A stretch of 64,000 nt of DNA from Nitrospiria bacterium (GTDB taxonomy: Bacteria; Nitrospirota; Nitrospiria; SBBL01; JAADHI01): positions 2,990 to 66,989 of the forward strand of contig JBHHXH010000002.1 of NCBI GenBank assembly GCA_046756925.1, read 5' to 3'. Positions 6,514 to 33,233 of this stretch are shown here, piece by piece. The position numbers and the translations under genes were made by a program. The notes under the pieces were generated by a model. The model ran no database searches. It was not told the DNA's origin and saw only the letters and a list, made by a program, of their open reading frames with translations. Position 1 is the first letter of the stretch; every line of letters starts with the position of its first letter.

Positions 6514-6864
6514 CCTAAAATAAGTAGTAATCACAATAAAAAATAACTCAAGGGCTGAGGGCGTGTTTTCGACAGGAATAAGATTGACGTCAGTAAAGAA
6601 ACACACGACCATACCTTGAATCGACGAATAGAAGGCTTCTTATCAAATGCTTACATTATTCCCATCGTGAAAATGATAGCGAGGTGCTCTAAATTCAGAG
6701 GGGATGAGGCCTGAAGATGTTGATCAGCATCCATCCTACAAATCAAGCTTTACCAGGGAAAAATCGTATATCGTGGGTCTTGGACCGGAAATGGGTCCTT
6801 TTTCATTGAGAGAAGGTACTTTGGGAAGGAGTTTTTTTTTGATTCCTTGGTTTAATCTTATGGT

Positions 6865-10771: not shown

Positions 10772-10772
10772 T

Positions 10773-13826: not shown

Positions 13827-13854
13827 TCGGTTTTTATCTCTGTGAAACGAAGAT

Positions 13855-14376
13855 TCATTTGTGGCACACCCAGCAATCGATGGAAGCATCCATCTTTCGA
13901 TGGCATTTGAGACACCAGCCCATTTCCAGTGAGCTGACCTGTTTCACCTGCTCCATCTCGGATACATCGCCATGGCATTGTTCGCAAGCCAGATCGGCAT
14001 TGAGATGCATGCGATGTGAAAAATAGACGAAATCCGGAAGGTTGTAGACTTTTTTCCAGGGAATGGGTTGGCGATTATCCCAGTAATCGAGCAATTTTTG
14101 GACTTCAGGGTGGTCCAGGGCGATCATTTCATGACAGCCGATGCATTTTTGTACGCTCGGTACCCCCGCAACGGAAGACTTCTTCGCATAAATATGACAA
14201 TAAAGACAGGCGATTTCACTTTCTTGGGCATGAGTTTTATGACTGAAATCGATCGGCTGCAGGGGTGAGGATCGGGTCGAAAAGAAAAATGCATAGGCGA
14301 GTGCTGCGCTGAGGGTGATGACTAAGGTCGGAATAAAAAGCGAGAGCAATCGGGGAGAGATCTTTGTTTTCCGCAA
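13855..14376 (-). CDS. actA: Alternative complex III pentaheme cytochrome c subunit ActA
   Basis: 173 aa with an N-terminal TM anchor. Five CxxCH motifs: CLYCH, CIGCH, CEQCH, CLKCH, CWVCH. TTG start at 14376 with AGGGA upstream. Confidence 0.85.
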   Translation of the reverse strand: MRKTKISPRLLSLFIPTLVITLSAALAYAFFFSTRSSPLQPIDFSHKTHAQESEIACLYCHIYAKKSSVAGVPSVQKCIGCHEMIALDHPEVQKLLDYWDNRQPIPWKKVYNLPDFVYFSHRMHLNADLACEQCHGDVSEMEQVKQVSSLEMGWCLKCHRKMDASIDCWVCHK

Positions 14377-15773: not shown

Positions 15774-15825
15774 TTGACAGGGGGAAGACATCCTTGTATA
15801 TTTATATCCGACCAAAATAATCGGA
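15774..15825 (+). promoter_or_regulatory. isc operon promoter plus candidate IscR operator
   Basis: TTGACA (15774-15779), a 17-nt spacer, then TATATT (15797-15802). This is followed by the inverted repeat TCCGA-N9-TCGGA (15807-15825), 27 nt before the iscR ATG. Confidence 0.5.
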
Positions 15826-15851
15826 GACTTAAAAGGTCGCCTATACCTCTG

Positions 15852-16283
15852 ATGTTAAAACTGACAAAAAAGACGGATTATGCCTTAATGGCCATCAACT
15901 ATATGTCCTATCGAAAAGATTCCTTTGTCGCCAATACGCGGAATATTTCGGAAGCGTATAACATTCCCTTGGAATTACTTGCCAAGATACTGCAGAAGCT
16001 GGCAAAAAAAGGCATGATCGTCAGCCAAAACGGACCAAAGGGTGGTTACAGCCTGGCGAAAGATCCAAGTCTGATCACCTTGGGCGAAGTGATTCAGATC
16101 ATCGAAGGGCCTATACAGATTGTTCGTTGTGTTGAAGGAGACACCACATGCTCCCAAACGGAACAGTGTACGATTCGAAGCCCACTCCGAAGGATTGAAC
16201 AAAAAATTGTGTCATATTTACACAGCATCACCATTGACAAGTTTTGCCAAGAGGCAATAGAAGATGAAATCGCCGTCAACTGA
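15852..16283 (+). CDS. iscR: Rrf2-family Fe-S cluster regulator IscR
   Basis: Start at MLKLTKKTDYALMAINYM (typical Rrf2 N-terminus). Three clustered Cys (CVEGDTTCSQTEQC) could ligate a cluster. First gene of the isc operon. Confidence 0.8.
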   Translation: MLKLTKKTDYALMAINYMSYRKDSFVANTRNISEAYNIPLELLAKILQKLAKKGMIVSQNGPKGGYSLAKDPSLITLGEVIQIIEGPIQIVRCVEGDTTCSQTEQCTIRSPLRRIEQKIVSYLHSITIDKFCQEAIEDEIAVN

Positions 16284-16310
16284 CGGAACGAAACCAAGGT
16301 AGGAAATAAT

Positions 16311-17528
16311 ATGCTCAAACTTCCAATATTTATGGATAATCATTCAACGACGCCGGTCGACCCTCGGGTCTTAGAGGCCATGCTTCCCTATTTCTCCGAA
16401 AAATTCGGAAATGCGGCCAGCCGTAACCATTCTTTTGGGTGGGAGGGGGAAAAGGCGGTTGCCTATGCCCGCGAACAAATCGCTCAACTGGTCCACTGTC
16501 ATCCAAAGGAAATTATTTTTACGAGCGGCGCGACGGAATCCGACAACCTGGCCTTAAAAGGTGTGGCCGAGATGTACCGAGAAAAAGGAAGTCATATTAT
16601 TACGGTCGTTACGGAACATAAGGCCGTTCTCGATGCAGCGAAGCACTTAGAAAAAGAAGGCGCAAAGGTGACCTATCTACCGGTTGACCGGGATGGCTTG
16701 ATCGACCCTCAATCCGTCAAGGCGTCCATTACCGACAAAACGATCCTAATCTCTATCATGCTGGCCAATAACGAAATCGGGGTGATCCAGCCCATTGCGG
16801 AGATCGGACAAATTGCAAAGGAAGAGGGTATTTTGCTGCATTGCGACGCCACGCAGGGGGTGGGAAAAATTCCTGTCAATGTTGAAACGATGGGAATCGA
16901 CCTGATGTCATTCTCGGCGCATAAGATATACGGACCCAAAGGCGTCGGCGGGCTCTATGTCCGAAAAAAGAATCCTAGGGTGCGATTGGCGCCCATGTTC
17001 GACGGCGGTGGCCATGAGCGCGGCATGCGTTCCGGAACGCTCAATGTACCCGGTATCGTCGGTCTTGGCACGGCCTGCGAAATCTGTGAAAAAGAAATGG
17101 CCGAAGAATCGATTCGCGCGACCCGCTTGCGCTTGAAACTCCGGGATCATATATTAAAAGAGCTGGATGAGGTTTACGTGAACGGCCATCGGGAAAATCG
17201 TCTCCCGCAGAATTTGAATATGAGCTTTGCGTATGTTGAGGGGGAATCGTTGTTGATGGGGCTGAATGAAATCGCGCTCTCTTCCGGCTCGGCTTGTACC
17301 ACCGCGACCTTGGAACCCTCTTATGTTCTGCGTGCATTGGGCGTTGGAAGCGATCTGGCGCATTCTTCCATCCGATTCGGTCTCGGAAGGTTTAACACCG
17401 AGGAAGAAGTTGATTATGTCGGCAAAAAAATTGTGGAAACGGTGAAAAGGCTTCGGGAGATGTCGCCCCTTTATGAAATGGCAAAAGAAGGTATCGATCT
17501 CAAGAGTGTCCAGTGGACACAACATTAA
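16311..17528 (+). CDS. iscS: Cysteine desulfurase IscS
   Basis: PLP-lysine motif [11 protein letters not shown] and active-site loop SSGSACTT. 405 aa. Confidence 0.9.
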
Positions 17529-17539
17529 GGAGGTAGTCA

Positions 17540-17923
17540 ATGTCGTACAGCAATAAGGTGATCGATCATTACAACAATCCTCGAAATGTCGGGAGCCTCG
17601 ACAAGCAAGATAAGGAAGTCGGGACCGGCGTCGTCGGCGCACCGGAGTGTGGGGATGTGATGAAGCTCCAATTGAAGATTTCCGAAGGGGTCATCGAGGA
17701 CGCCCGCTTTAAAACCTTCGGTTGTGGCAGCGCCATCGCAAGTTCCAGCCTGGCGACGGAGTGGGTGAAAGGAAAGACAATCGATGAGGCATTTAAAATT
17801 AAGAACACGGAAATCGTGAATGAGTTAAATCTGCCTCCCGTAAAGATTCACTGTTCGGTCTTGGCGGAGGATGCGATCAAAGCCGCGATTGCGGATTACA
17901 AGAAAAAGAATGGAGAAGGATAA
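17540..17923 (+). CDS. iscU: Fe-S cluster scaffold IscU
   Basis: Three conserved Cys contexts (GAPECGDVMKL, FGCGSAIASSS, KIHCSVLAEDA) and the LPPVK Hsc-binding motif. Confidence 0.92.
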   Translation: MSYSNKVIDHYNNPRNVGSLDKQDKEVGTGVVGAPECGDVMKLQLKISEGVIEDARFKTFGCGSAIASSSLATEWVKGKTIDEAFKIKNTEIVNELNLPPVKIHCSVLAEDAIKAAIADYKKKNGEG

Positions 17924-17926
17924 AGA

Positions 17927-18286
17927 GTGGGGCAGATGGAAACAAATATCGGCAATGCGCAAACGGTTCGTTTGACATCCGCGGCGGTTGAAGCCGTAAA
18001 GGGGATGATTGTGAGAAAAAAATTAGGGAACGTGGCTTTGAGGTTGGGCGTCGAAGGAGGCGGTTGTTCGGGCCTGACCTATCAACTTAAATTCGATACC
18101 GAGGTGAGTCCACATGACGAAAGCTATGAGTTCGAAGGGCTGCGGGTGCTGGTCGACAAAAAAAGCCTGCTCTACTTAACGGGCATTACCCTCGATTTCA
18201 GCAAGGACTTGGTTGGAGGCGGTTTTAAGTTTATCAATCCGAACGCCAAGCAGAGCTGTGGTTGTGGAGAATCGTTCTCCGCCTGA
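17927..18286 (+). CDS. iscA: A-type Fe-S carrier IscA
   Basis: HesB/IscA family, with C-terminal CGCGESF and an upstream GGGCSG motif. The start is ambiguous (GTG 17927 or ATG 17936). Confidence 0.85.
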   Translation: MGQMETNIGNAQTVRLTSAAVEAVKGMIVRKKLGNVALRLGVEGGGCSGLTYQLKFDTEVSPHDESYEFEGLRVLVDKKSLLYLTGITLDFSKDLVGGGFKFINPNAKQSCGCGESFSA

Positions 18287-18293
18287 GGCTGCC

Positions 18294-19031
18294 ATGAATG
18301 TGATTCCTGAAAAAACAGGCCCCGAGAGGGGCCGTTCTTTTTTGGACCAGCAACCCCAAAACCGCCCGTGCTGGAGTTGTGAATACAAATCGGACGATCT
18401 CTATAATTGTTCTCAGTGCGACAAACTGCAGGAATTTCTTGAGGAGACGGATTACTTCAACTGGTTTGGTTTCGGCTATTTTCTTTCGATCGATCAAGAC
18501 GCCCTGGAAAAACAGTACCACCTCCTAAGCCGGAAATTTCATCCGGACTTTCACCAAAAAACATCACCGGAGGAACAAGCCATCAGCCTTGAAAATACCG
18601 CGCATTTAACCAAGGCCTATCGCATCTTAAAGGACCGCAAAAAAAGAATGGCATACTTGATCGAATTACTTGTAGGCGCGCAGGCGCCGCCGACAAACGT
18701 GGCGGACGATCTTTTTGAAGAAATATTGGAGATTCAAGAACGGATGGAAGCCATGCAAGAGATGGATCGATCTCAAAATGACCGCAAAGAGGCGCTGCTG
18801 TCGTCCTTAAAGATCGATCTGGAAAACATGGAAAGCCACCGGAAGGAAATAGAAGAAAGCCTGCAGTCCCTGTCATTAAAATGGGACTGCTTGGAAGAAA
18901 AGAGGGGAGCAGGGCCTTTAGGAGATTCGCAAATACTATATTTGCAAGAAATAAAAACCTTGCTGGCCAAAGACACCTATCTCGATCGTATCATCCAGGA
19001 AATACGCAGATCGATCGAAGGAGGATCTTAA
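18294..19031 (+). CDS. hscB: Co-chaperone HscB with N-terminal tetracysteine module
   Basis: ATG at 18294, just after the iscA stop. J-domain HPD (KFHPDFH). N-terminal CWSC-x10-CSQC. I rejected the ORF-track start at 18213 because it overlaps iscA. Confidence 0.8.
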   Translation: MNVIPEKTGPERGRSFLDQQPQNRPCWSCEYKSDDLYNCSQCDKLQEFLEETDYFNWFGFGYFLSIDQDALEKQYHLLSRKFHPDFHQKTSPEEQAISLENTAHLTKAYRILKDRKKRMAYLIELLVGAQAPPTNVADDLFEEILEIQERMEAMQEMDRSQNDRKEALLSSLKIDLENMESHRKEIEESLQSLSLKWDCLEEKRGAGPLGDSQILYLQEIKTLLAKDTYLDRIIQEIRRSIEGGS

Positions 19032-20864
19032 ATGTCTTATGTGATCGGAATAGACCTCGGGACAACCAACAGTCTGGTTGCCGTTATGGATGGAGACACC
19101 CCCCGTGTCATTAAAGATCGCTTCGGAAAGACCTCTCTCCCATCGGTTGTCTATATTCCCTCATCGGGCGCCCCTCCAGTTGTCGTCGGAGATCCGGCCA
19201 AGAAACATCTGGTGACGGATTCGGATCGGACAATATATTCCATTAAACGGTTTATGGGGAAAGGCCGGGACGAAATTCAAGAAGATACGAAAAGAATCCC
19301 TTACAAATTGCTTGGCGATTCAAATGAATCCGTCCGCATTCAAGTGGGCGAACGGCTGTATACCCCTCCGGAAATTTCGGCGTTTATTCTTCGTGAGTTG
19401 AAGGAACGGGCCGAAGCCGACCTGAAAGAATCGGTGTCTCAAGCAGTGATCACGGTGCCCGCTTATTTTAACGACAGTCAAAGACAGGCGACAAAAGATG
19501 CGGGAAAGATCTCTGGGCTTGAAGTGCTTCGCATATTGAATGAACCCACAGCCGCATCCCTGGCCTATGGCCTACAAAAATCCAAAGAAGGGATCATCGC
19601 GGTATATGATCTCGGCGGCGGGACATTCGATATTTCAATCTTAAAAATCAAAGAGGGCATATTTGAAGTCCTTGCCACCAATGGCGATACGCATTTAGGC
19701 GGCGATGATTTTGATCAACGAATCGTGACCCTATTCTGCGAAGAGATTCGCCGAGAATATAAGATCGATCTTTTTGAATATCCTGAAGTGTTACAGGACA
19801 TTCGTCTGAAGGCCGAGCAAGCGAAGTCATTGCTCTCTACACAGGCCTCTTACGAGATTGAGATGGTGCTACCGATGAAAAAGGGAACCTACCGGCGTGA
19901 AATGACCAAAAAAGAATTCGAGGAAAACATTCAAGATTTGGTGGACCGTACGACCGATCCATGCCGCATGGCGCTTGTCGATGCGGGCTTGAAACCGGCG
20001 GATGTGAATGAAGTCGTACTGGTCGGAGGATCGACGCGTATCCCTTATATCCAGGAAACGGTGGCCAAGCTCTTTCATAAAACGCCTCACAGCGAACTCG
20101 ATCCGGAGAAGGTCGTCGCCTTGGGGGCGGCGATTCAAGCCAATATTCTCTCCGGGGGCATTACCAATCTGCTGCTTTTGGACGTCACCCCATTATCGCT
20201 TGGCATTGAAACCATGGGGGGGGTCGTGGGCCGCTTGATTCCGAGGAATACAACCATCCCGACCAGCGGGAAGGAAACCTTTTCAACCTTTGTAGATGGT
20301 CAGCAATCTGTATCCATTCATGTCGTGCAGGGAGAAAGAGAACTGGTGGCCGATTGCCGCAGCTTGGCAAAATTTAATCTGACCGGAATCGATCCCATGC
20401 CGGCGGGCATGCCTCGGATTGAGGTCACGTTTTTAATCGATGCAAACGGGATACTGAATGTGAAGGCCACAGACCTTCGGAGCGGCAAAGCGCAATCCAT
20501 CGAAGTGAAGCCGACCTACGGCCTCACGGAGACGGAAACCGAGGCAATGATCTCGGATTCGATGGAACATGCAAAAGAAGACATGGAAAAGCGCTTATTG
20601 ATCGAGCTAAAAAATGAAGCCGAAACCGTGATCAGACACACGGAAAAGGGGCTTTCGCAAGGATCGGACCTGATGGACAAGACCGAACGGAAAATGATCG
20701 AGTCGTCTCTTTACGATTTAAAGATCGCCCTTGCGAAAAATGACCGGAATATGATTCGCGAAATACTCAATCGTCTCGATGAAGTCACGCTTCCGCTCGC
20801 GGAAAAATTGATGAACCGCACCGTGAAAGAAGCGCTTCAAGATAAAGAGCTGACCGATCTTTAG
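19032..20864 (+). CDS. hscA: Fe-S cluster chaperone HscA (Hsp70 family)
   Basis: [23 protein letters not shown], 610 aa, directly downstream of hscB. Confidence 0.92.
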
Positions 20865-23324: not shown

Positions 23325-23515
23325 TTGATTATATGGCATCGATGCATTTGGAATTGTTAAACGAGATGCCCACTGCCCAGTTAGAAATAAGAAAACGTGA
23401 GAGGAGGCGCCGTATCCTCATCAATATCGAAAATAACAGCGGCGAAAGAACGAAGATCAACTGAAATGTTTCGGTTGAGGTTAAACAACTTTTTTATTAT
23501 TTGGAGGGTCAAAAA

Positions 23516-24118
23516 ATGGACGCAAGAAAATATAGACGGATATTAATCGGAGGAATTGCATTTTCTTTCTTGTTCGCGTTGGTGTCCCATGCGGCCGGCC
23601 TTGACGACCGTGTCACAGGCGTGAAACTGCGTGGCGACGGCACCGTCGATGATGCGCCGGGAAGACATATCCAAGACGATGATATTGGTCCGGATGGACT
23701 CAAGCGCCGGGGGGATGGATCGATCGACGATACCCAACCCAATCGACCTGGCGGGATGAATGACGTAAAGCGCCGTGGCGACGGCACCATCGATGACCAT
23801 TCACGGGACCGGCATCGTGATGGGGATGACCACGCCAGAATGAGAGAGGACGATCGTAACGACAGGTCCCATCGAGGCAGAGGACGCGGACGCGGTCGTG
23901 GCCGAGGACGTGGGCGCGGGGGCGATCACGATGTAAGAGTTTCCATGGAGGAGCATCGGGGACGAGGCCGTGATCATGACCGTATGGAAGATCGTGTCGC
24001 CGCCCGGAGGGACGACCACCGGGGTCGCGGCCGGGACGATCACCGGACCCGCGAAAGAGACGACGACCGGAATCGCGGACGAGATGACGACCGAGGCCGT
24101 GGAAGAGACGATAACTAA
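23516..24118 (+). CDS. Secreted low-complexity Arg/Asp/Gly-rich repeat protein
   Basis: ATG at 23516 after GGAGGG. Signal peptide ILIGGIAFSFLFALVSHAAG. Three repeats [KR][LR]RGDG[TS][VI]DD, then a run of RG dipeptides (HRGRGRGRGRGRGRGG) and an RD/RG-rich tail to the stop. Confidence 0.6.
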   Translation: MDARKYRRILIGGIAFSFLFALVSHAAGLDDRVTGVKLRGDGTVDDAPGRHIQDDDIGPDGLKRRGDGSIDDTQPNRPGGMNDVKRRGDGTIDDHSRDRHRDGDDHARMREDDRNDRSHRGRGRGRGRGRGRGRGGDHDVRVSMEEHRGRGRDHDRMEDRVAARRDDHRGRGRDDHRTRERDDDRNRGRDDDRGRGRDDN

Positions 24119-24205
24119 GTCCATGCCGTAAAAGCAATACCGGCCAAAACGGCATATCGCCAGCCGGCAAGTCTCCTTTATTTATTTCCTTAATCTGCCT
24201 ATCTG

Positions 24206-24240
24206 AAAGGGCATCTCCTTGAGATGCCCTTTCTTTATTT
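24206..24240 (+). terminator. Rho-independent terminator
   Basis: Perfect 12-bp stem AAAGGGCATCTC / GAGATGCCCTTT (24206-24217 and 24221-24232) with a 3-nt loop, followed by TTCTTTATTT. Confidence 0.7.
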
Positions 24241-24518
24241 GGGAGTCTCAAAAATTATTTCCTAAAACGATTATGGATGCTTTGCGAAAAGGATTTCACG
24301 GATAGACAACAGAATCGGTTGAGCATGTGTGTTGCCTACCGATTCATATTCATGTTGAGAAGGCAAGATTATTGCGAAACGATTCGAATGTAGGTTATAT
24401 AAAAAGTAGAGTGTTTTTTTACGCAAGAGGATCGATAAATGCCGTCATCGAGGCTCAGGTAATCAATAGGCATATTGGAGCTTCCGAATTTTATCGTGCG
24501 AGGAAAGGAGGTATTGTC

Positions 24519-25658
24519 ATGAAAGAACCGGCGCAAACGAACGCAAAGTATATTATCACCTGCCTGCTCATCTTTTTACTTGTCTTATTGGTCGAGGGCT
24601 GTGTCACAAAGGACCGGTTTATGAGTCAGGTCTCGGAAACCCAGGGTCTCGCGAGACAGCTTGGAGAAGTTCAGCAGGCACATGATGATTTGAAAAGAGA
24701 AGCGGTTGCCTTAAAAAAGCGTCTCGCAAACCTGAGTGCCGCGCTGACCGATGCGCAAGAAGAAGCCGCGCAAAGAGAGAGGGTGCTCGGAGATGAAAAA
24801 CAAGGTTTGGAGACGGCGCTGGCCCGGTCAAAGCAAGACCTGTCGGCACTGGAGCACCGGTTGGCGGAAAAGGAGACAGAAGCGGCTGCCTTAAAAAAGC
24901 GTCTCGAGAATCTGAGTGCGGCGCTAAGCGCCGCCAAAAAAGAAGCTGCGCAAAGAGAGAGGGTGCTCCGAGTTGAAAAACAAGGTTTGGAGACGGCACT
25001 GGCGCAGTCGAAGCAAGACCTGTCGGCGTTGGAGCACCGGTTGGCGGCGAAGGCGGATGCACTCGAGGCCCTGCGGGCCGAGCACGATGCCGTCCATCAG
25101 GAGAATGAAAAGCTCCGGGAGGCGCTCGAGCTCAGCGAGGCGGATCTGGAGCGAATGAAACGTGAGATAAAAGAAAGCTCGAAAGCACACCAAGACCTTG
25201 TGAGAGGACTTAAAAAAGAAATCGATGAAGGCAGCATCAAGATTAAGAAACTAAAAAATCGTCTGCATGTCGAAATTGTCGACAGCATTCTCTTTGCTTC
25301 CGGAAGCGACCGAATCACGTTGGAAGGGAAGGGTGTCTTGACCAAGGTGAGTGACGTTTTAAAAGACGTGAGGGAAAACGACATCCGGATAGAAGGGCAT
25401 ACCGATCATGTTCCGATCGGTCCTAAAATCATCGATAAATTCCCGACCAATTGGGAACTCTCCACCGCACGCTCGACGCAGGTCGTTCGCTTTCTCTTCG
25501 GGCAGGGGGTGCAGCCGGAAAATATGCAGGCGGCCGGTTTTTCCAAGTATCGTCCGGTGGCATCGAACGAAATTCCTGAAGGAAGACGGCGAAACAGACG
25601 CATCGAGATCGTCCTGTTTCCAAGAGATCTCTTAAGGCTCGCTGAAGCGGTTGAATGA
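24519..25658 (+). CDS. OmpA/MotB-family peptidoglycan-binding lipoprotein with coiled-coil repeats
   Basis: ATG at 24519 after AGGAAAGGAGG. Lipobox LVEGC. Long heptad-like region, then a C-terminal OmpA_C pattern (IRIEGHTDHVPIG...NWELSTARSTQVVRFL...NRRIEIVLFP). Confidence 0.8.
   Translation: MKEPAQTNAKYIITCLLIFLLVLLVEGCVTKDRFMSQVSETQGLARQLGEVQQAHDDLKREAVALKKRLANLSAALTDAQEEAAQRERVLGDEKQGLETALARSKQDLSALEHRLAEKETEAAALKKRLENLSAALSAAKKEAAQRERVLRVEKQGLETALAQSKQDLSALEHRLAAKADALEALRAEHDAVHQENEKLREALELSEADLERMKREIKESSKAHQDLVRGLKKEIDEGSIKIKKLKNRLHVEIVDSILFASGSDRITLEGKGVLTKVSDVLKDVRENDIRIEGHTDHVPIGPKIIDKFPTNWELSTARSTQVVRFLFGQGVQPENMQAAGFSKYRPVASNEIPEGRRRNRRIEIVLFPRDLLRLAEAVE
24699..25058 (+). repeat. 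Tandem 2 x 180-bp in-frame duplication inside the OmpA-family gene
   Basis: 24699-24878 and 24879-25058 align base for base (gaagcggYtgccttaaaaaagcgtctcg...ctgtcggcRYtggagcaccggttggcgg), about 85% identical by eye. Each copy encodes 60 aa (EAxALKKRLxNLSAAL...QDLSALEHRLA). Confidence 0.85.
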
Positions 25659-25734
25659 AACCACTTCGACTTCGATCACAAAGCATCATTTCGGATGGGC
25701 CGTATGATAAGAAGACGATTGTCTCCCTTAGATC

Positions 25735-26892
25735 TTATGATTTTGTCATCGCCGATATTAATATTTCGGCGACTTCGGGACGGCTGAATTCGAGCGGTGG
25801 TTTGATCCCCGCACTGAGCATCTCACGCACCTTCGTGCCGGAAAGGGCAACCCGTTCCGCCGGGTCGTGTGGGCAGGTCTTGGAAGACACCATGCCCAGG
25901 CAACGCTTGCAATAAAAAGTATGATCGAAGAAGAGCGGCCGAATACCGAGTTCGCCGTCCTCGAATTCCTTAAAAATATTTTGCGCGTCGTAGGTGCCGT
26001 AAAAGTCTCCCACGCCGGCATGGTCGCGGCCGACGATAAAATGGGTGACCCCGTAGTTCTTTCTGCAGATGGCGTGAAAGATGGCCTCTTTCGGACCCGC
26101 GTAGCGCATGGCGGCTGGAAAGACGGAAAGGACGGTCCGGTCTTTCGGATAATACTGATCGAGTAAGACTTTGTAGCAATCCATTCGGACATCGGCGGGG
26201 ATGTCCCCTTCTTTTGTCGCGCCCACAATCGGATGGAGAAGCAAACCGTCCGTGATTTCCAAGGCGCACTTTTGGATATATTCATGGGCCCGGTGGACCG
26301 GGTTCCGTGTTTGGAAAGCGACAACACGATGCCATCCTCTCTCTTCGAACAGCGCTCTTGTTTGAGCCGGTTCAAGACGGTGTGATTGAAAGGGCATGTT
26401 GGGAGGGCGCTGGATCATCTCGATCGGTCCTCCAAGTAGTAAAGGGCCGAGGGAATGGGTATAGGCCACACCGGGATGGCGCATCTCGTGGGTCCCATAA
26501 ACACTGAGCGCTTCCGCTTCCTTGTCGAAGGCAAACATCTCTTGTACCCGAAGGATGGCCAGGAGGGTTTCGGATGCATCGGTCAAGGCAATTTCTTGCC
26601 CTTCTTTAATGGCCGAAGCCTCGTCCGCCGAGACCGACAAGGTGATGGGGAGACTCCAGGGCAGACCGTTCGAAAGACGCATCGAATGGAGCACACTGTG
26701 GTAGTCGTCACTGCACATGAAGCCCTCAAGAGGAGAAAACACGCCGCTTGCAATCAATTCCAAATCCGAAATCTCGCGAGGTGTCAATACAATTTTCTTC
26801 AGGGTCGCTGCTTTTTGCGTTGTGCGGTCAATTTCTTTGGCTTCAACGAATCGGTTGATCAGTTTTCCGCCGTGGGGTGTTGAAATCTTCAT
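25735..26892 (-). CDS. sat: Sulfate adenylyltransferase (ATP sulfurylase, homo-oligomeric Sat type)
   Basis: Start at MKISTPHGGKL (ATG 26892 after AAGGAG). QTRNPVHRAHE and VGRDHAGVG motifs. Confidence 0.9.
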   Translation of the reverse strand: MKISTPHGGKLINRFVEAKEIDRTTQKAATLKKIVLTPREISDLELIASGVFSPLEGFMCSDDYHSVLHSMRLSNGLPWSLPITLSVSADEASAIKEGQEIALTDASETLLAILRVQEMFAFDKEAEALSVYGTHEMRHPGVAYTHSLGPLLLGGPIEMIQRPPNMPFQSHRLEPAQTRALFEERGWHRVVAFQTRNPVHRAHEYIQKCALEITDGLLLHPIVGATKEGDIPADVRMDCYKVLLDQYYPKDRTVLSVFPAAMRYAGPKEAIFHAICRKNYGVTHFIVGRDHAGVGDFYGTYDAQNIFKEFEDGELGIRPLFFDHTFYCKRCLGMVSSKTCPHDPAERVALSGTKVREMLSAGIKPPLEFSRPEVAEILISAMTKS

Positions 26893-26958
26893 AAAATCTC
26901 CTTGCTTAAAGCTTATAAATGGAATCAAGAAAAAAACGTTTTCAACTTTTGTTTCGAA

Positions 26959-27345
26959 TTAGATCGAAAAATCGAGGCCCTGCGCGCCGTCTTCGATCGT
27001 TTCATCGAGCGCGATCTTCATAACCTTCGTCCGGATGGTGAAGGTCTCTTTCTTCCCCTTGATATCGACCGCTTCCCAAGAGATAAAATCGCGTGTTTTG
27101 TGCACATGCGGCGCCAGCTTCGCCCCCTTTGATCCGAATTGATACGAAAGATGAAACTCGATCGCCTCTTCAGGACAGGCTTTGACGCAGGGCAGACAAT
27201 CCCAGCAATCTTCCGGATATTTCAAGTGGGCCTTGTTGACGGAATGATCTTTTACGATCAGGTCGCCGGGGCACATCCGTACACAAGGGGGTTGTCTTGA
27301 ATTGTAACAGCCGTTGCATTTTTCCGGGTCCACCCATACAGGCAT
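26959..27345 (-). CDS. aprB: Adenylylsulfate (APS) reductase beta subunit AprB
   Basis: MPVWVDPEKCNGCYNSRQPPCVRMCPGDLI and CWDCLPCVKACP (two 4Fe-4S motifs) parallel AprB of Archaeoglobus and other sulfate reducers. 128 aa. Confidence 0.85.
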   Translation of the reverse strand: MPVWVDPEKCNGCYNSRQPPCVRMCPGDLIVKDHSVNKAHLKYPEDCWDCLPCVKACPEEAIEFHLSYQFGSKGAKLAPHVHKTRDFISWEAVDIKGKKETFTIRTKVMKIALDETIEDGAQGLDFSI

Positions 27346-27362
27346 CGCTCAATTTCCTTTCA

Positions 27363-29081
27363 TCATGGTTTATAACGGTCTCCTGGAATAATCTGCTCAT
27401 AGGGCCGAGTCGTCATTTGGATCTCACCGCTCTTTGGATCTCTGACCGAGTTGACGAATTTCAACCAGTTGACGTCATCCCGATCGGGGTAATCTCTCCG
27501 GGTGTGGTAGGTCGGCCAGCGGGTTTCTTTTCGGTAGGAAAGATGTTCCACTAAGACTTGCGCCACATCCACCCGATCGATGATTTCATGCGCTTTCATC
27601 AGCTGGTGCAGGTCCTCCGCGATCAATTGGTTGGCCTCGCCGGGTAATGTCGAGAGCCGTTTGCGGGCGATTGCGAGCATTTCCTCATTCATTTCGTAAT
27701 AGGTGGAGACACCGCCGGCATACTGTTCCATGATTTTCTGAAGCCGGGCCTCAAGATCGGCCGGATGGATGCCCCGCATCCCTTGTTCATGATTGTAAAA
27801 TGCATTGAAGGCCCGCTTTTCTTCTTGCGCGATTTGGGCGTCCGATACAGTTGTGTTTTCCATCTGAGCGATATCGTCTCCCATCGTCCGGGCGGCCAAG
27901 ACGCCCTCCGCCCAACAACCGGAGACAAACTTATAAGGCGCGCCGCCCGCGACGTCACCTGCGGCATAGAGTCCCTTCAGCGTCGTCCTGCGACCGACAT
28001 CCACCCAATACCCTGCCTGGCAGTGGCCTCCGACGATATAGGGCTCCGTCGTTTGGACTTCCACCGGCTCTTTTCCGGGATCGATGTTGTTCGACAACCA
28101 GTAAAGCACTTGAGAAGGATACATATCTAGATAGGCTTTTTTCAGGTCCTGCACTTTTTCCGGGGGAATCCCCCGGGTATCCAGGTAGACCGGACCGCGG
28201 CCTTCTTTGATCTCTTGAATCGGGCCGTGCGCCCGATAAGGGGTCGGCGCCCCGTCTCCGCCGATGTTGCCGTAGCGGTTCACCATGAAACGCTCCCCCT
28301 TGGAATTGACCTGTGGCGCGCCGGCCCCCAGCGCAATCGTTCCTGTCGGGGCGATGGCATCTTTGGTCCGGATGGCGACATAACGCATCTCGTAGGAGGT
28401 CATCTCCGCACCAGCCCGGATGCCCATGGCATAGCCTGCACCGGTGTTATAGGGCGAGTACCAGGTTTTATGAGACGCATCTCCGGTATTGTTCGGACGG
28501 TACAAACCCGCCGCGCCGCCCGTTGCAATCAGGGTCGCCTTTGCCCGAACGACATAAAACTTACCGTTTCGAAGCGAGAATCCGACGGCGCCCGCGATGC
28601 GGTCCCCATCGGTGAGTAGATTCGTGACCACGATCCAATTGTAAACCTTGGTTCCCGCCGTGCGGGCGGCCCGGGCCAGAATCGGCTTGAGGGACTCGCC
28701 GTTGATCTTGATATTCCATCGGCCTCGGGGGAGATACTCCCCATTTTCATCGCACAATATCGGAAGTCCCCATTTTTCGACCTTTTTGACGCAATATTCA
28801 AAAAGCGCCGACATCGACTGAACCAGGTCTTCGCGGATGAGACCGCAAGAATCGGACCGAACATAGCGCACAAAGCTTTCCGGCGTTTCCCCCTTATTTA
28901 AATAGGCATTGATGGCGTTCATCCCGCCCGCCAGGCAACCGCTCCGATCGATGTGGGCCTTCTCAAGGATGGTGACTTTATATTGGGGAAAGCGTTCCCG
29001 CACTTCAACGGCCGCCATGCAACCGGCGGTGCCTCCTCCGATGATTAAGATGTCCGTATCGATGATTTGCCGTTCGATCAT
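27363..29081 (-). CDS. aprA: Adenylylsulfate (APS) reductase alpha subunit AprA (FAD flavoprotein)
   Basis: ATG at 29081 after GGTGAGGA (the ORF-track GTG at 29090 is less likely). FAD fold DILIIGGGTAGCMAA. Collinear resemblance to AprA throughout (EKWGLPI, GAVGFS, ATGGA, YRKETRWP). Confidence 0.88.
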   Translation of the reverse strand: MIERQIIDTDILIIGGGTAGCMAAVEVRERFPQYKVTILEKAHIDRSGCLAGGMNAINAYLNKGETPESFVRYVRSDSCGLIREDLVQSMSALFEYCVKKVEKWGLPILCDENGEYLPRGRWNIKINGESLKPILARAARTAGTKVYNWIVVTNLLTDGDRIAGAVGFSLRNGKFYVVRAKATLIATGGAAGLYRPNNTGDASHKTWYSPYNTGAGYAMGIRAGAEMTSYEMRYVAIRTKDAIAPTGTIALGAGAPQVNSKGERFMVNRYGNIGGDGAPTPYRAHGPIQEIKEGRGPVYLDTRGIPPEKVQDLKKAYLDMYPSQVLYWLSNNIDPGKEPVEVQTTEPYIVGGHCQAGYWVDVGRRTTLKGLYAAGDVAGGAPYKFVSGCWAEGVLAARTMGDDIAQMENTTVSDAQIAQEEKRAFNAFYNHEQGMRGIHPADLEARLQKIMEQYAGGVSTYYEMNEEMLAIARKRLSTLPGEANQLIAEDLHQLMKAHEIIDRVDVAQVLVEHLSYRKETRWPTYHTRRDYPDRDDVNWLKFVNSVRDPKSGEIQMTTRPYEQIIPGDRYKP

Positions 29082-29154
29082 TGTCCTCACCCTAAAAAAT
29101 GTCGTATCCGATTCGCTTTCACACTTGTTTTGTCGATGGCGCTTGGAAAGCGCT

Positions 29155-29601
29155 TCAGATATGGAACATTAAGACGTTTCCGCCTTCCCTTTCTATTTTT
29201 CTTTCACAAAGGTCTTGAAAGTTGATGGCATTCAGTTGGTTTTGAAGAACATCGTTCGCTTCATGCCATATTTCTCTAAGGATCATGCTGTCGATTCCCC
29301 TTTCACCCGGCTTGTTGTAGGAAAGCTCGGAGGGCGCATTTTGACCTTCGATCGCCCTGAGGACCTCACCGAAGGTGATCTGACCCGGCAATCGCGCCAA
29401 TCGATAACCCCCGTGGGGCCCACGCACACTTTCCACCAAGCCTTTTTTCTTCAATTGGCTCATGACCTGTTCCAAAAATCGCAGGGGGATCTTCTCTTTT
29501 TGCGCGATCGCTTTGACTTGTAGGGGGCCAGGGTCGGTATGGAGCGAGAGGGCCAACACGGCCAGCACGGCATATTCGCCTTTTGCAGAAAAATGGAGCA
29601 T
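29155..29601 (-). CDS. Rrf2-family transcriptional regulator lacking the Cys cluster ligands (CymR-like)
   Basis: Rrf2 wHTH N-terminus (SAKGEYAVLAVLALS...IPLRFLEQVMSQLKKKGLVESVRGPHGGYRLA). It has only one Cys in the whole protein. It lies directly upstream of aprA on the same strand. Confidence 0.8.
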   Translation of the reverse strand: MLHFSAKGEYAVLAVLALSLHTDPGPLQVKAIAQKEKIPLRFLEQVMSQLKKKGLVESVRGPHGGYRLARLPGQITFGEVLRAIEGQNAPSELSYNKPGERGIDSMILREIWHEANDVLQNQLNAINFQDLCERKIEREGGNVLMFHI

Positions 29602-29640
29602 AAAACATACTATTCCGATAGGTTATATATAGTATATGCA

Positions 29641-29669
29641 TTTATAATGGATGCGGAGGTGCTTGTCAA
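29641..29669 (-). promoter_or_regulatory. Sigma70-type promoter of rrf2-aprAB-sat
   Basis: The minus strand reads TTGACA (29669-29664), a 17-nt spacer, then TATAAA (29646-29641). The inverted repeat ATACTAT-N15-ATAGTAT (29607-29635) lies between the -10 and the ATG. Confidence 0.5.
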
Positions 29670-29705
29670 CTCAAAACTGGTATCGCTCAGTTTTTCGATC
29701 CGAAT

Positions 29706-29734
29706 CTTAAGTCGACGCCCAAAGTCGACTTAAG
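29706..29734. repeat. Perfect 11-bp inverted repeat CTTAAGTCGAC-N7-GTCGACTTAAG
   Basis: Read directly from the sequence. It lies between the lspA stop (29834) and the rrf2 promoter. Confidence 0.8.
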
Positions 29735-29833
29735 GTCGCACCCAGTTGAAGTTCGGGCAATCATGAAGAGAATGTTGGAAAAAATGAACCGAGGGCCGAA
29801 AAGAAGGTGTCTGGGCGGGATCGGAAATCGAAA

Positions 29834-30352
29834 TCAGTCCCTTCCATCCGGCTCTTGGGTGACCTGTTTTTTTTGAAGAAAGAGATGAAACATCATTAAA
29901 GACACCCCGACGGTGATAGATGAGTCCGCCACATTAAAGGCCGGCCAGTGATGCCTGCCGATGAAAAAATCCAAAAAATCGACGACCTTTCCAAGACGAA
30001 TGCGGTCGATCATATTGCCGATGGCACCGCCGAAAAGGAGAGAAACGGCGATCAGCGCAAGGGTGTCCTCATTGGGTGTTTGGCGAAAGATGACACTGAG
30101 CAGGATCAAGGCAATAATAGAAATGATGGTAAAGAAAACGCCGCGAAACGCGGCACCCTGTTCGGCCATAAAGCCAAAGGCCGCACCCGGGTTTTGAATG
30201 TAGGTCAGGGCAAAGAATCCGTCGATGACGATCATGGATTCATGGAGTTCGAATTGGCTTTGTACGAGGCTTTTGGTGATCTGATCTAAGAGGATGATGG
30301 TGCAGCCGATGACCATCAGAAAAAAATGCTTACGGTGCATCAACGTCCTCAT
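29834..30352 (-). CDS. lspA: Lipoprotein signal peptidase II
   Basis: DQITKSLV, GGAIGNMIDR and FNVADSSITVG motifs. Start at ATG 30352 or 30340; both overlap the ileS 3' end. I rejected the upstream part of ORF 29834..30604 as an overlap artefact. Confidence 0.85.
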   Translation of the reverse strand: MRTLMHRKHFFLMVIGCTIILLDQITKSLVQSQFELHESMIVIDGFFALTYIQNPGAAFGFMAEQGAAFRGVFFTIISIIALILLSVIFRQTPNEDTLALIAVSLLFGGAIGNMIDRIRLGKVVDFLDFFIGRHHWPAFNVADSSITVGVSLMMFHLFLQKKQVTQEPDGRD

Positions 30353-33233
30353 CGCGCAAGACCCCGGTGCAGCGCCGGCAAAGACGCGGATGCCTGGGGT
30401 CCGACCCGAAGTCTTCTCCGAAGACCCAACAGCGTTCGCATTTCTCTCCACGGGCGGGTCCGACTTGTACTGCAATGCCCAGCGCGTCATTCGTCTGTTG
30501 ATACGACCAGTCTTCGGTTTGAAGGCGCGCGGTTTCGGAAGGGGTCTTCCATTCCTGTAAACGAACCTGGGAGACGATAAAGAGTGCGGGCAAAAATGTT
30601 TCAAATGCGTTCAGGTCCTGATACACCGGCTTTTTTGCGAACAAGGACGGCGCGGCTTCGAGCGGATTTCCGATTTTTCGTTCCTTTCGCGCGGTTTCCA
30701 GCACGCGGGCCACCGCTTCCCGAATACGGATCAATCGATCCCAGCGCGCCAAGCGTTCTGAATCGACCGCTTTGGCCTTGATGAATGAACAGAGGTGAAC
30801 GGACCGTTTCTTTTTAAGATCTGTCGGGAGATGCGTCCAGATCTCTTCCGCGGTAAAGGTCAATATGGGCGCCATTAAGCGGACCAGTGTCAAGAGGATT
30901 TCCTGCATGACGGCCTGCGCCGCGCGCCGCTCGGGGGAGCGCTGGGCAGAGGTATAGAGCCGGTCTTTTAAGATGTCGAGATAAAAGGCCGAGAGATCGA
31001 CGGCGCAAAAATTATTCAAGGCGTGAAAGACCACATGAAAAGTCGATGTCTGATAAGCCTGTTGGACTTTCTGGTTCAAAAGATGAAGACGGTCTTGCGC
31101 CCATCGATCGATGTCTTGGAAATCGTCTTCCGATACGGCCAGGCGATCGGCACCAGAAAAATCATAGAGATTCCCGAGTAGAAAGCGGCATGTATTCCGG
31201 ATTTTGCGATAGGCTTCCACCATCTGCGTGAGGATATCCGACGAAATACGGATGTCCTCTCGAAAGTCGGTGGCCGCCACCCAAAGCCTCAGGATATCCG
31301 CCCCGTGCCGTTGAATGACTTCCTGCGGGGCAATGACATTGCCCTCCGATTTTGACATCTTTTTACCGGCGCCATCCACGACAAATCCGTGTGTCAAAAC
31401 CGCTTTATAAGGAACGCGGTTGTCCGTCATCAATGCGGCGAGCAGGGTGCTGTGAAACCAGCCACGGTGCTGATCCGAACCCTCCAGGTAGAGGTCCGCG
31501 GGCCATGCCAACTCGGGGCGCGTTTTCAAAACGGCGGCGTGGCTGACCCCCGATTCGAACCAAACATCCAATATATCTTGTTCCTGAATAAAGTTGCCGC
31601 CGCCGCATTTCGGGCAGATGGTGCCTTCGGGCAGCAGGGCTTCGGCAGGTTTCAAAAACCAGAGATCACTGCCGGAACCTTGTTTCATCTCATCCGCGAC
31701 ATGGTCGATGATCTCTTTGGACGTAAAGGTTTCCTTGCAATCACGGCAAGCAAAGGCGACGATGGGCACGCCCCACACGCGTTGGCGGGAGATACACCAG
31801 TCGGGACGGTTTGCGATCATCCCCTCAATCCGGTCTTGTCCCCATTTGGGGATCCATGCGACATCCTCGGTAATCGCTTTTAAGGCGCGCGTGCGAAGAT
31901 CGTTCGCAGACATTGAGATAAACCATTGCTCCGTCGCCCGAAAGATCACAGGCCGCTTGCATCGCCAGCAGTGCGGGTAGGAGTGGGCGATCTCTCCCGC
32001 GTGGAGCAGCGCATCATGTTCTCGCAAGGTTGAGAGAATCTGCGCGTTGGCGTCGAAGACTTTCAGGCCCGAAAACGGTCCGGCTTCTTCCGTAAACCGG
32101 CCGCGGTGATCGACGGGTGCGTAGACCTCGAGTCGATATTGCAAGCCAACCTCGTAATCCTCCTGACCATGTCCGGGGGCGGTGTGAACGCAACCCGTGC
32201 CTTGCTCCAGCGTGACATGCTCAGCAAGTACAATCGGTGAGGGACGATCTATCCAAGGATGGCTGAACTCCCAACCTTCAATTTCAGCGCCGGTAAATGA
32301 GCCGACTTGTTGAATGTTGATCCCTCCAAGCGTTTCTTTAGTGAAACTGTCAAAAAGCTCTCTCGCAACAATGTAAGCATCACTTCCGGCCACAAACACT
32401 ACGTATGTAAGTAGAGGATGCAGGGCGATTGCTTGGTTTGCAACAAGTGTCCAGGGTGTCGTAGTCCAGATTACGATAGAGAGATTTCGACCTTTCATTT
32501 CGTGTGTGATGGGTTGTTCGGCGATCTGTACCACATCTTTGATAATATTGATGAGACTTTCCTCCTGTCGGCCCCGTAGCGGAAACTTCACATAAATCGA
32601 GGGAGATGCATGATCCGCATATTCAACTTCCGCTTCGGCCAGGGCGGTTTCATCATAAGCACACCATAACACTGGTTTTTTCCCTTTATAGACGCCGCCG
32701 GTAGCATAGACCTTTGCGAACTCCCGGACGATCGCGGCTTCGTAGTCCGGGGTCAATGTCAGATAAGGATGTTCCCAGTCGCCAAAAACACCCAAACGTT
32801 TGAACTCTTCCTTCTGGATTTCGACAAACTTTTCCGCATATTCACGACAGCGCTTCCGGATTTCGATTAGCGAGAGGGTCTGCTTTTTCGATCCGAGTTT
32901 TTTTAATACCTGATGCTCGATCGGCAAGCCATGACAATCCCAGCCGGGAACGTAGGGGACCCGGTAGCCGCTCATGGTTTTCGATTTAACGATGATGTCT
33001 TTCAAGATTTTGTTGAGGGCGTGACCGATGTGGATATGGCCGTTCGCATAGGGGGGACCGTCATGCAGGATGTAGGTATTATCCTCAACATGTTGTGTTT
33101 GTATGTGGTCGCATAGCTGCGTTTTGTCCCACTCGGAGAGTTGAGAGGCCTCTCGCTGCGCCAAATTTGCCCGCATGGGGAAGTCGGTTTTCGGAAGGTG
33201 CAAACTGTGCTTATAAGATGTTTTTTTATCCAT
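30330..33233 (-). CDS. ileS: Isoleucine--tRNA ligase (type 1, C-terminal zinc finger)
   Basis: HIGH (ANGHIHIGHALN), KMSKS (GKKMSKSEGN), C-terminal CERCW...CRRC. Start at MDKKTSYKHSLHLPKTDFPMRANL (33233), by analogy with the E. coli N-terminus. Confidence 0.93.
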   Translation of the reverse strand: MDKKTSYKHSLHLPKTDFPMRANLAQREASQLSEWDKTQLCDHIQTQHVEDNTYILHDGPPYANGHIHIGHALNKILKDIIVKSKTMSGYRVPYVPGWDCHGLPIEHQVLKKLGSKKQTLSLIEIRKRCREYAEKFVEIQKEEFKRLGVFGDWEHPYLTLTPDYEAAIVREFAKVYATGGVYKGKKPVLWCAYDETALAEAEVEYADHASPSIYVKFPLRGRQEESLINIIKDVVQIAEQPITHEMKGRNLSIVIWTTTPWTLVANQAIALHPLLTYVVFVAGSDAYIVARELFDSFTKETLGGINIQQVGSFTGAEIEGWEFSHPWIDRPSPIVLAEHVTLEQGTGCVHTAPGHGQEDYEVGLQYRLEVYAPVDHRGRFTEEAGPFSGLKVFDANAQILSTLREHDALLHAGEIAHSYPHCWRCKRPVIFRATEQWFISMSANDLRTRALKAITEDVAWIPKWGQDRIEGMIANRPDWCISRQRVWGVPIVAFACRDCKETFTSKEIIDHVADEMKQGSGSDLWFLKPAEALLPEGTICPKCGGGNFIQEQDILDVWFESGVSHAAVLKTRPELAWPADLYLEGSDQHRGWFHSTLLAALMTDNRVPYKAVLTHGFVVDGAGKKMSKSEGNVIAPQEVIQRHGADILRLWVAATDFREDIRISSDILTQMVEAYRKIRNTCRFLLGNLYDFSGADRLAVSEDDFQDIDRWAQDRLHLLNQKVQQAYQTSTFHVVFHALNNFCAVDLSAFYLDILKDRLYTSAQRSPERRAAQAVMQEILLTLVRLMAPILTFTAEEIWTHLPTDLKKKRSVHLCSFIKAKAVDSERLARWDRLIRIREAVARVLETARKERKIGNPLEAAPSLFAKKPVYQDLNAFETFLPALFIVSQVRLQEWKTPSETARLQTEDWSYQQTNDALGIAVQVGPARGEKCERCWVFGEDFGSDPRHPRLCRRCTGVLRDEDVDAP

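Follow-up and report, generated by a model that had tools for sequence, protein, structure and literature searches.

A compact AprAB-Sat operon headed by an Rrf2 regulator in a Nitrospiria bacterium and its probable role in assimilatory sulfate reduction

Background

The closest characterised relative of the system considered here is the reductase of Methanothermococcus thermolithotrophicus that acts on 3'-phosphoadenosine 5'-phosphosulfate (PAPS) (MtPAPSR), an enzyme sharing its alpha2-beta2 architecture and catalytic residues with dissimilatory adenosine 5'-phosphosulfate (APS) reductases. It is assimilatory, shows no reverse activity and is probably of bacterial origin; homologs in bacteria were called 'putative APSR', and ferredoxin was proposed as the electron donor (Jespersen & Wagner 2023, PMC10322725). 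In the pathway description given for Ca. Manganitrophaceae, sat, aprA-B and the assimilatory sulfite reductase (aSir) are listed as an assimilatory pathway, with growth on sulfate as anabolic sulfur source, and the core-gene table of the same source has AprB and an aSir-TusA fusion among the expressed core genes (Yu et al. 2022, PMC9040806). For assimilatory AprAB in bacteria, the sentence on Manganitrophaceae and the M. thermolithotrophicus paper were the only prior literature that turned up. The present text deals with an rrf2-aprA-aprB-sat unit found in a metagenome-assembled genome (MAG) of a Nitrospiria bacterium (Nitrospirota); the DNA analysed was a stretch of 64 kb of this genome (hereafter the window).

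The whole is best explained, and we consider the explanation likely, by an autoregulated operon that encodes the two initial steps of sulfate reduction for assimilation, in a Nitrospiria relative of Ca. Manganitrophaceae. Sat would convert sulfate to APS, and a compact AprAB heterodimer would reduce APS directly to sulfite and adenosine monophosphate, without an APS-kinase step. AprA would carry flavin adenine dinucleotide (FAD) and AprB two [4Fe-4S] clusters, and the reaction would proceed through an FAD-N5 sulfite adduct, as in dissimilatory APS reductases. A soluble carrier of low potential, most plausibly ferredoxin, would deliver electrons via AprB, in place of membrane-bound Qmo or AprM; the sulfite would next be reduced by an aSir encoded elsewhere in the genome. 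The operon is not a discovery but a useful example of a lineage that was structurally characterised in 2023 and annotated as assimilatory in a neighbouring family in 2022. What this analysis adds is an APS/PAPS subclade split with a residue hypothesis, a CymR-like regulator with its candidate operator, and a warning for marker-gene surveys.

Operon structure and protein families

The genes of the unit, in the order of transcription, are the following:

29155-29601, minus strand: rrf2, Rrf2-family regulator of 148 aa (PF02082, E 5e-35)
27363-29081, minus strand: aprA-like alpha subunit, FAD flavoprotein of 572 aa, compact AprAB lineage, 'GRWN' subclade
26959-27345, minus strand: aprB-like beta subunit of 128 aa, with two [4Fe-4S] motifs (8 Cys), Trp48 and a short C-terminus
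25735-26892, minus strand: sat, homo-oligomeric ATP sulfurylase of 385 aa, ATG at 26892

An earlier note, made from the DNA letters alone, had described a unit of these four open reading frames (ORFs), and all four were found on the minus strand at these coordinates. They are co-directional, with gaps of 73, 17 and 66 nt between rrf2, aprA, aprB and sat. The start codon of aprA is the ATG at 29081, which has GAGGA upstream and gives 572 aa; the alternative GTG start (575 aa) falls within this ribosome-binding site. For sat, the likely start is the ATG at 26892, with AAGGAG 5 nt upstream (385 aa), and the 397-aa ORF opened by a TTG is probably too long. No significant terminator-like structure was detected 3' of sat (z = -0.5), and positions 24000-31000 gave no Rfam match to a riboswitch or other RNA at E <= 0.1.

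Domain content, family models and matches in the PDB bore out, without ambiguity as regards domains and families, the assignment of AprA, AprB and Sat made in the earlier note. AprA has the FAD_binding_2 and Succ_DH_flav_C domains and is annotated in NCBI as 'adenylyl-sulfate reductase subunit alpha'; it scored 772.5 bits on NF005331, the model of that name (cut-off 557), and 480.1 bits on the canonical TIGR02061, below the cut-off of 641.75. Its best PDB match is the alpha subunit of MtPAPSR (8A8O_A, E 9.6e-191; 53% identity by BLASTP), followed at a distance by the AprA of A. fulgidus (1JNR_A, E 4e-123) and of M. gigas (3GYX, E 1e-91). AprB matches Fer4 families and has eight Cys in two ferredoxin motifs together with the conserved Trp (EDCWDC, W48). 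It scored 75.1 bits on TIGR02060, below the cut-off of 135.65, and is 35% identical to the beta subunit of MtPAPSR; its matches to 1JNR_B, 3GYX_B and 8A8O_C are each at about 1e-16, with residues 1-107 only being aligned. Sat contains PUA_2 and ATP-sulfurylase domains, scored 571.1 bits on NF003166 (cut-off 387), and has as best PDB match the ATP sulfurylase MtATPS (8A8D, E 6e-115).

The small size of both Apr subunits, also pointed out in the earlier note, was traced to definite segments: relative to A. fulgidus AprA (AfAprA), AprA has lost about 50 aa in six segments of 4-17 residues and has a shorter N-terminus, and AprB lacks the long C-terminal tail of canonical beta subunits. Eight catalytic and APS-binding residues of AprA are the same as in AfAprA (window/A. 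fulgidus numbering: N58/N74, Y73/Y95, W207/W234, R238/R265, G247/G274, L251/L278, R283/R317 and H353/H398), and two depart from it (N123 for Q145, R119 for E141). The next relatives of AprA, at 79-87% identity, are from MAGs of Nitrospirota and Ca. Manganitrophaceae. In a tree, the window AprA was placed inside a clade called GRWN here (from a loop described below), sister to an MtPAPSR-like (Mt-like) clade, and the GRWN clade stood apart from the canonical clade of AfAprA and representatives of 654-657 aa; the tree, built by neighbour joining from 42 sequences, is rough and has no support values, which takes some weight from the argument. AprA and AprB belong to the compact AprAB lineage (NF005331) and not to canonical dissimilatory AprBA.

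Conserved neighbourhood and metabolic role

Relatives of the window AprA were searched for by a pattern scan with one genome per GTDB species. They were found in 172 species, among which are members of Nitrospirota, Bacillota, Actinomycetota, Planctomycetota, Chloroflexota, Schekmanbacteria, Hadarchaeota, Hydrothermarchaeales and Methanobacteriota, and 80 loci were kept (labelled L and a number below). Gene order is strongly conserved: aprB comes after aprA in 65 of the 72 loci that extend far enough and before it in none of the 80, and sat lies downstream of aprA in 48/80 loci and upstream in none. An Rrf2 gene is located directly upstream in 32/80 loci, every one of them from Nitrospirota, and subunit sizes are 560-590 aa for AprA and 103-133 aa for AprB. 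The M. thermolithotrophicus locus likewise has alpha, then beta. Four traits had been listed as atypical in the earlier note: aprA before aprB, short subunits, the lack of Qmo, AprM, Dsr and Hdr-like genes, and an Rrf2 regulator with a single Cys. All four are present, but they are unusual only by comparison with canonical aprBA loci; as the rule throughout the compact lineage, they are not anomalies of this locus. The same note took the reversed order, should it be common in characterised organisms, as telling against its interpretation. Such is partly the case, the order being that of the characterised M. thermolithotrophicus locus and of the whole lineage, and this removes the strangeness of the arrangement and leaves the reading of its function unaffected. 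The rrf2-aprAB-sat unit as a whole, whose recurrence had been proposed as a check, recurs across related Nitrospirota loci.

A sub-branch of seven Bacillota loci (L052, L063, L067, L069, L070, L072 and L080) has a GRWN-type AprA without aprB or sat nearby. Upstream, these loci share a conserved 467-aa protein (weak protein-kinase match) and, farther up, a DUF711 and an ACT-domain protein; downstream is a 460-aa pyridine-nucleotide-disulfide oxidoreductase or a His_biosynth-family protein. In this sub-branch the same flavoprotein may be the basis of another enzyme system. Long Sat ORFs were seen in L043 (631 aa) and L041 (512 aa); the extension has no CysC match and so is something other than an APS-kinase domain.

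In 13 Nitrospirota loci, an aSir of about 800 aa (two NIR_SIR/NIR_SIR_ferr modules) fused to a C-terminal TusA is encoded between aprB and sat. It is found about 2.4 kb after aprB in L016, L017, L021, L024-L026, L029, L031, L032, L035, L053 and L073, and also at L085:1764-4094. Separate small TusA genes adjoin small NIR_SIR genes, or lie directly 5' of aprA, in L044, L054, L065, L083 and L084. The fusion and these adjacencies suggest, from gene arrangement, that the sulfite reductase passes its product to TusA. A TauE/SafE-family permease is present between rrf2 and aprA in about 15 loci. In the Mt-like loci of Bacillota and Acidobacteriota, small NIR_SIR, TusA and ThiF/JAB/ThiS-PALP sulfur-carrier genes lie beside alpha-beta-sat, which is also adjoined by ABC transporters and by pyridoxal-phosphate enzymes of Cys/Met metabolism. 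No Qmo, AprM or Dsr was among the recurrent neighbours annotated in the 80 loci, and E. coli CysC, CysH, CysDN and CysJ probes had no match there. The recurrent extra genes annotated (ParA/Mrp-like, TrkAH, CNNM, GGDEF-HD) include no dedicated electron-donor gene and no plausible reductase partner; ferredoxin is a plausible donor because the aSir of the relatives is of the ferredoxin type and the same proposal was made for MtPAPSR.

About 45 ORFs were annotated in the window, among them an ABC transporter, an alternative-complex-III (ACIII)-like complex, an isc cluster, outer-membrane proteins, lspA-ileS, a CCA-adding enzyme and a complete dcw cluster. Qmo, AprM, Dsr and Hdr are absent from these, as had been claimed, and six-frame translation of the window gave no match to probes for E. 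coli CysC, CysH, CysD, CysN, CysJ and CysI or for a Nitrospirota aSir. The proposal that AprAB serves assimilation in place of CysH is thus supported by the aSir-TusA and permease context of the relatives, the lack of Qmo, AprM and Dsr, the kinship with MtPAPSR and the account of Yu et al.; it is essentially correct, yet had already been made for close relatives. The other use offered with it, sulfite detoxification or oxidation, found no support. Two circumstances count on the other side: the window unit itself has neither aSir nor TauE permease, and the window as a whole holds no sulfite reductase, sulfate permease or cysK; and a cysC, a 3'-phosphoadenosine 5'-phosphate (PAP) phosphatase or a cysH could be encoded elsewhere in the genome, beyond the 64 kb.

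Regulator and candidate operator

The Rrf2 protein has exactly one cysteine (C132), at a non-ligand position, and none at the ligand positions of IscR. It scored 93.5 bits on the IscR model TIGR02010 (cut-off 207.55) and 88.1 bits on the CymR model NF047409 (cut-off 195), the latter in an end-to-end alignment (residues 3-148 to 2-139 of 139), and is about equally far from the IscR and CymR structures. Its C-terminus reads ...NVLMFHI-COOH. A tail of the form [LVIP]-M-[FY]-H-I is found in nearly all of 34 orthologs (terminal Ile in 34/34, Met at -4 in 33/34, Phe or Tyr at -3 in 34/34), and these last five residues are the most conserved feature of the orthologs outside the helix-turn-helix. In S. 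aureus CymR, the pentapeptide YMFYI inserts into the active site of CysK with nanomolar affinity, the carboxylate of the terminal Ile filling the O-acetylserine site (10.1101/2024.09.19.614015).

The region upstream of rrf2 was found to contain three elements:

29641-29669, minus strand: sigma-70-type promoter, TTGACA at 29669-29664, 17-nt spacer, TATAAA at 29646-29641 (manual reading and conservation)
29605-29630, minus strand: operator-like palindrome ATATATAACCTATCGGAATAGTATGT, core TATCGGAATAGTA, downstream of the -10 hexamer and upstream of the rrf2 start codon
29706-29734, minus strand: hairpin CTTAAGTCGAC/GTCGACTTAAG, 11-bp perfect stem and 7-nt loop, between the lspA stop codon and the rrf2 promoter

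More than 30 orthologous Nitrospirota loci have TTGAC and a TATAAT-like hexamer in the corresponding place upstream of rrf2. An automatic consensus promoter scan returned nothing, since the -10 hexamer has A as its final base. The palindrome has the family consensus TATTCC-N4-GGAATA and is the best match in the window to the corresponding position weight matrix (28.5 bits; next best 16.3). Of 33 regions upstream of rrf2, about 30 contain it, in most cases as the sole or highest-scoring match of the locus, and in L033 it is a perfect 22-bp palindrome (TACTATTCCTATAGGAATAGTA); it also precedes the operon in three loci without rrf2. The palindrome is a candidate operator of Rrf2, as judged from its position and conservation. 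The operator of CymR, too, contains GGAAT, and the palindrome presumably resembles the published CymR box. The second match (6651-6678, 16 bits against 28.5) was judged a probable chance occurrence; it falls among small ORFs that span 1.2 kb and include a HicB-antitoxin-like one (6212-6427, minus strand). The hairpin has a folding energy of -22 kcal/mol (z = -3.8, with 0/200 shuffles folding as well) and no U tract, and may be a terminator, an insulator or a protein-binding palindrome.

The conjecture of the earlier note, that this Rrf2 is of the CymR type, was strengthened and sharpened by the lack of ligand cysteines and by the match of LMFHI to the CysK-docking YMFYI. By analogy with CymR, the protein would repress its own operon by binding to the palindrome, which would overlap the transcription start, and its LMFHI tail would dock into the active site of CysK. 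O-acetylserine, accumulating when sulfide is scarce, would then displace the tail and derepress the operon. Such a CymR-like autorepressor, dependent on CysK and O-acetylserine, would be the simplest model. The reading of O-acetylserine via CysK by regulators of the CymR type is so far known from Bacillota only.

The alternative is that Rrf2 works without CysK or O-acetylserine, through redox chemistry at Cys132, a small ligand or, in three-Cys orthologs, an Fe-S cluster, the tail then serving dimer or DNA contacts. This we regard as unlikely, though several observations speak for it and weigh against the CymR analogy. The window protein is below both cut-offs and by sequence slightly closer to IscR than to CymR (85 vs 71 bits), Cys132 is conserved in 23/34 orthologs, no cysK was seen in the window, and the three IscR-position Cys are kept in the orthologs of L026, L029, L035 and L053 as well as in the regulator of the Pelotomaculum operon. 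The strict conservation of the tail and its correspondence to the CymR pentapeptide, together with the lack of such a tail in an IscR-like paralog of the same window, argue for CysK docking. Three-Cys orthologs (L026, L029, L035, L053; L083:2801-3256), too, carry a CysK-type tail (VMYHI, NMYFI). The window branch has lost the cysteines, and as some branches keep both the three Cys and the tail, the sensing mode may differ between branches.

The paralog just mentioned, a second Rrf2 (15774-16283, plus strand), has three Cys where IscR has its ligands and lacks a CysK-type tail. It is the first gene of an isc cluster (15774-20864), so that a cluster-type and a Cys-less Rrf2 are both encoded within 14 kb. 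Other members of this cluster are:

16311-17528, plus strand: iscS
18213-19031, plus strand: hscB
19032-20864, plus strand: hscA

APS or PAPS specificity

In MtPAPSR, which prefers PAPS about 16-fold, specificity for PAPS was ascribed to Lys120, Arg121 and Ser122, and the 3'-phosphate of PAPS would collide with Gln145 in the AprA of A. fulgidus (PMC10322725). The corresponding loop was compared among the 120 closest homologs of the window AprA and the 120 closest homologs of MtPAPSR. A loop G-R-W-N (R121-W122-N123 in the window protein) is present in 120/120 of the former, with Leu at the position of A. fulgidus L278. MtPAPSR has G-K120-R121-S122, nearly all of its 120 closest homologs have G-[KRT...]-R-[SN], and the L278 position is occupied by Gln. 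In canonical AprA, the loop is G-[QRK]-W-[QG], and the L278 position is Leu, or Gly in one of three representatives.

The two groups also differ in gene content. An APS kinase gene is found beside the alpha gene (within about 8 kb) in 6/7 Mt-like loci as against 0/82 GRWN loci, a number to which the scan contributes 80 and the window and L089 one each. The seven Mt-like loci are those of M. thermolithotrophicus, Pelotomaculum, Caldanaerobius, a Thermincolia MAG, a Bacillota MAG, an Acidobacteriota MAG and Halobacteroides; in all except Halobacteroides the kinase is directly upstream of or beside the alpha gene, and the E. coli CysC probe detects all six kinases at E <= 1e-36. The contrast has a Fisher p of 1e-8, without correction for phylogeny. 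Neither a DHH nor a CysQ-type phosphatase is encoded in the window operon.

The window enzyme and the GRWN subclade thus probably reduce APS and not PAPS, because Trp122 and Leu251 are as in APS reductases and no APS kinase is nearby in 82 loci. The Mt-like subclade would then be a derived, PAPS-using form. We consider it distinctly improbable that the window enzyme is instead a PAPS reductase like MtPAPSR, with an APS kinase and a PAP phosphatase encoded elsewhere. For this possibility it can be said that the nearest protein both solved and assayed, and the sole characterised relative, is the PAPS-specific MtPAPSR (E 1e-190, 53% identity, with the preference given above), which makes APS use by the GRWN type a prediction; that R121 of the window protein is basic where MtPAPSR has K120; and that Asn123 replaces the clashing Gln145 and is smaller, so that PAPS could fit sterically. 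The kinase contrast, moreover, is built on seven Mt-like loci, and the loci are phylogenetically non-independent; these points together weigh against APS as the substrate. They are opposed by the lack of an APS kinase, in the 64-kb window as within about 8 kb of the alpha gene in the GRWN loci, when 6/7 Mt-like loci have one; by Trp122 and Leu251, where the Mt clade has Arg and Gln; by the lack of a phosphatase of either type in the operon; and, weakly, by the Manganitrophaceae core-gene table, among whose listed entries are AprB and aSir but neither cysC nor cysH.

Consequences for marker-gene surveys

A dissimilatory unit, in which AprAB and Sat would run in reverse, oxidising or detoxifying sulfite to sulfate and yielding ATP, or would take part in sulfate respiration, with a membrane partner encoded elsewhere, is highly implausible: the database label 'adenylyl-sulfate reductase', the retention of the catalytic residues of dissimilatory AprA and the practice of some MAG surveys, which count aprAB and sat of aquifer Nitrospirota as sulfite-oxidation genes, are in its favour, but the proteins fail the canonical AprA and AprB models and lie outside the canonical clade, the 64-kb window has no qmo, aprM, hdr or dsr, the operon of relatives carries an assimilatory aSir-TusA and a permease, a CymR-like regulator heads the unit, MtPAPSR has no reverse activity, and the Manganitrophaceae kin are aerobic manganese oxidisers whose sat, aprAB and aSir are read as anabolic in the pathway description of PMC9040806.

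If the assimilatory interpretation holds, surveys based on aprA (K00394) would take many organisms for dissimilatory sulfur cyclers in which the genes are purely anabolic. Compact subunits, the aprA-aprB order, the GRWN loop, the scores on NF005331 against TIGR02061 and the absence of Qmo can be used as discriminators against such over-calling. An example is provided by a study of aquifer Nitrospirota in which aprAB and sat are treated as sulfite-oxidation genes (PMC11033732). The compact GRWN-type gene is present in three MAGs of that study, nzgw269, nzgw272 and nzgw273 (L012, L029 and L030); the operon of L029 includes aSir-TusA, and the contig of L030 ends just after aprA. At least part of the sulfite-oxidation signal is therefore likely to be anabolic, as judged from these three MAGs; the one discussed in the text of the study is nzgw271.

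The split between GRWN (no kinase) and G-x-R-S/N (adjacent kinase) leads to a two-residue hypothesis for APS/PAPS specificity, and a specificity experiment of this kind was explicitly called for by Jespersen & Wagner (PMC10322725). A CysK-docking Rrf2 with a defined operator outside Bacillota would, if real, extend the CymR paradigm. A broader proposal, towards which the evidence leans somewhat, is that the GRWN subclade (at least 172 GTDB species) is a widespread class of assimilatory APS reductases of the AprAB type, and a third solution next to the CysH-type APS and PAPS reductases; that the PAPS-specific MtPAPSR type differs from it by a Trp-to-Arg and Leu-to-Gln switch with recruitment of an APS kinase; and that in Nitrospirota the operon is controlled by a CymR-like Rrf2 reading O-acetylserine via CysK. 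Current understanding is not overturned by any of these points.

Other features of the window

Convergent with sat, an OmpA/MotB-like protein is encoded at 24327-25658 (plus strand), in the coiled coil of which about 70 aa are repeated in tandem (KKRLxNLSAALxxAxxEAAQRERVLxxEKQGLETALAxSKQDLSALEHRLA, x2). A 205-aa ORF at 23501-24118 (plus strand) has a signal-peptide-like N-terminus followed by extreme Arg/Asp/Gly low complexity, with a RGRGRGRGRGRG run and DDHRGRGRD-like units. The ACIII-like gene cluster (6865-14376, minus strand) is composed of the following genes:

13855-14376, minus strand: cytochrome c7-like protein
10773-13889, minus strand: ActB-like molybdopterin/4Fe-4S protein of 1038 aa
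9425-10771, minus strand: NrfD/ActC
7932-9869, minus strand: ActD fused to cytochrome c
6865-7935, minus strand: membrane protein of 356 aa without Pfam match

Comparison with known systems

With the thioredoxin-dependent APS and PAPS reductases of the CysH type, the window unit shares the conversion of (P)APS to sulfite for assimilation. There is no kinship of sequence or fold, CysH being a single-subunit, thiol-dependent enzyme, and no gene of this type occurs in the window or in the 80 loci.

Among Rrf2 regulators, IscR (TIGR02010) differs by the Cys-Cys-Cys-His ligands, which the window protein lacks, and by a model score that the latter does not reach. CymR of Bacillus and Staphylococcus (NF047409; 2Y75, 3T8R) shares with it the Rrf2 fold, the lack of Fe-S ligand Cys, the terminus x-M-F-x-I-COOH and targets in sulfur assimilation. 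The window regulator differs from CymR in its score (88 bits vs the cut-off of 195), in belonging to another phylum, in heading its target operon and in being autoregulatory, as proposed above; its binding to CysK is a prediction.

Canonical AprBA (1JNR, 3GYX) has in common with the window enzyme the FAD alpha subunit, the beta subunit with two [4Fe-4S] clusters, the catalytic Asn, Trp, Arg and His, Trp at loop position 144, Leu at 278 and, probably, APS as substrate and the chemistry. By contrast, the window AprA is about 50 residues shorter, the beta tail is missing, the gene order is reversed, QmoABC, AprM and Dsr are absent, and the proteins score below both cut-offs, form part of a separate clade and are found in an anabolic context.

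The sat-aprAB-aSir genes of Ca. Manganitrophaceae are orthologous (79-86% AprA identity), belong to the same Nitrospiria lineage, have the same rrf2-aprA-aprB-sat order (L008, L013, L068) and were given the functional interpretation favoured here. They differ in that aSir and the TauE permease lie outside the window unit, and the statement made on them in the pathway description (PMC9040806) is one at annotation level, without analysis of substrate, regulator or operator.

MtPAPSR (8A8O) differs from the window enzyme in its loop (G-K-R-S vs G-R-W-N) and in Gln250 at the place of Leu251. Its locus has the APS kinase, DHH PAP phosphatase and TauE that are missing from the window unit, which is bacterial, Rrf2-headed and predicted to use APS. 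Shared by both are the NF005331 lineage, the alpha-then-beta order, the linkage to sat, the independence from Qmo and AprM, the catalytic residues and an assimilatory role, which for the window unit is the likely one.

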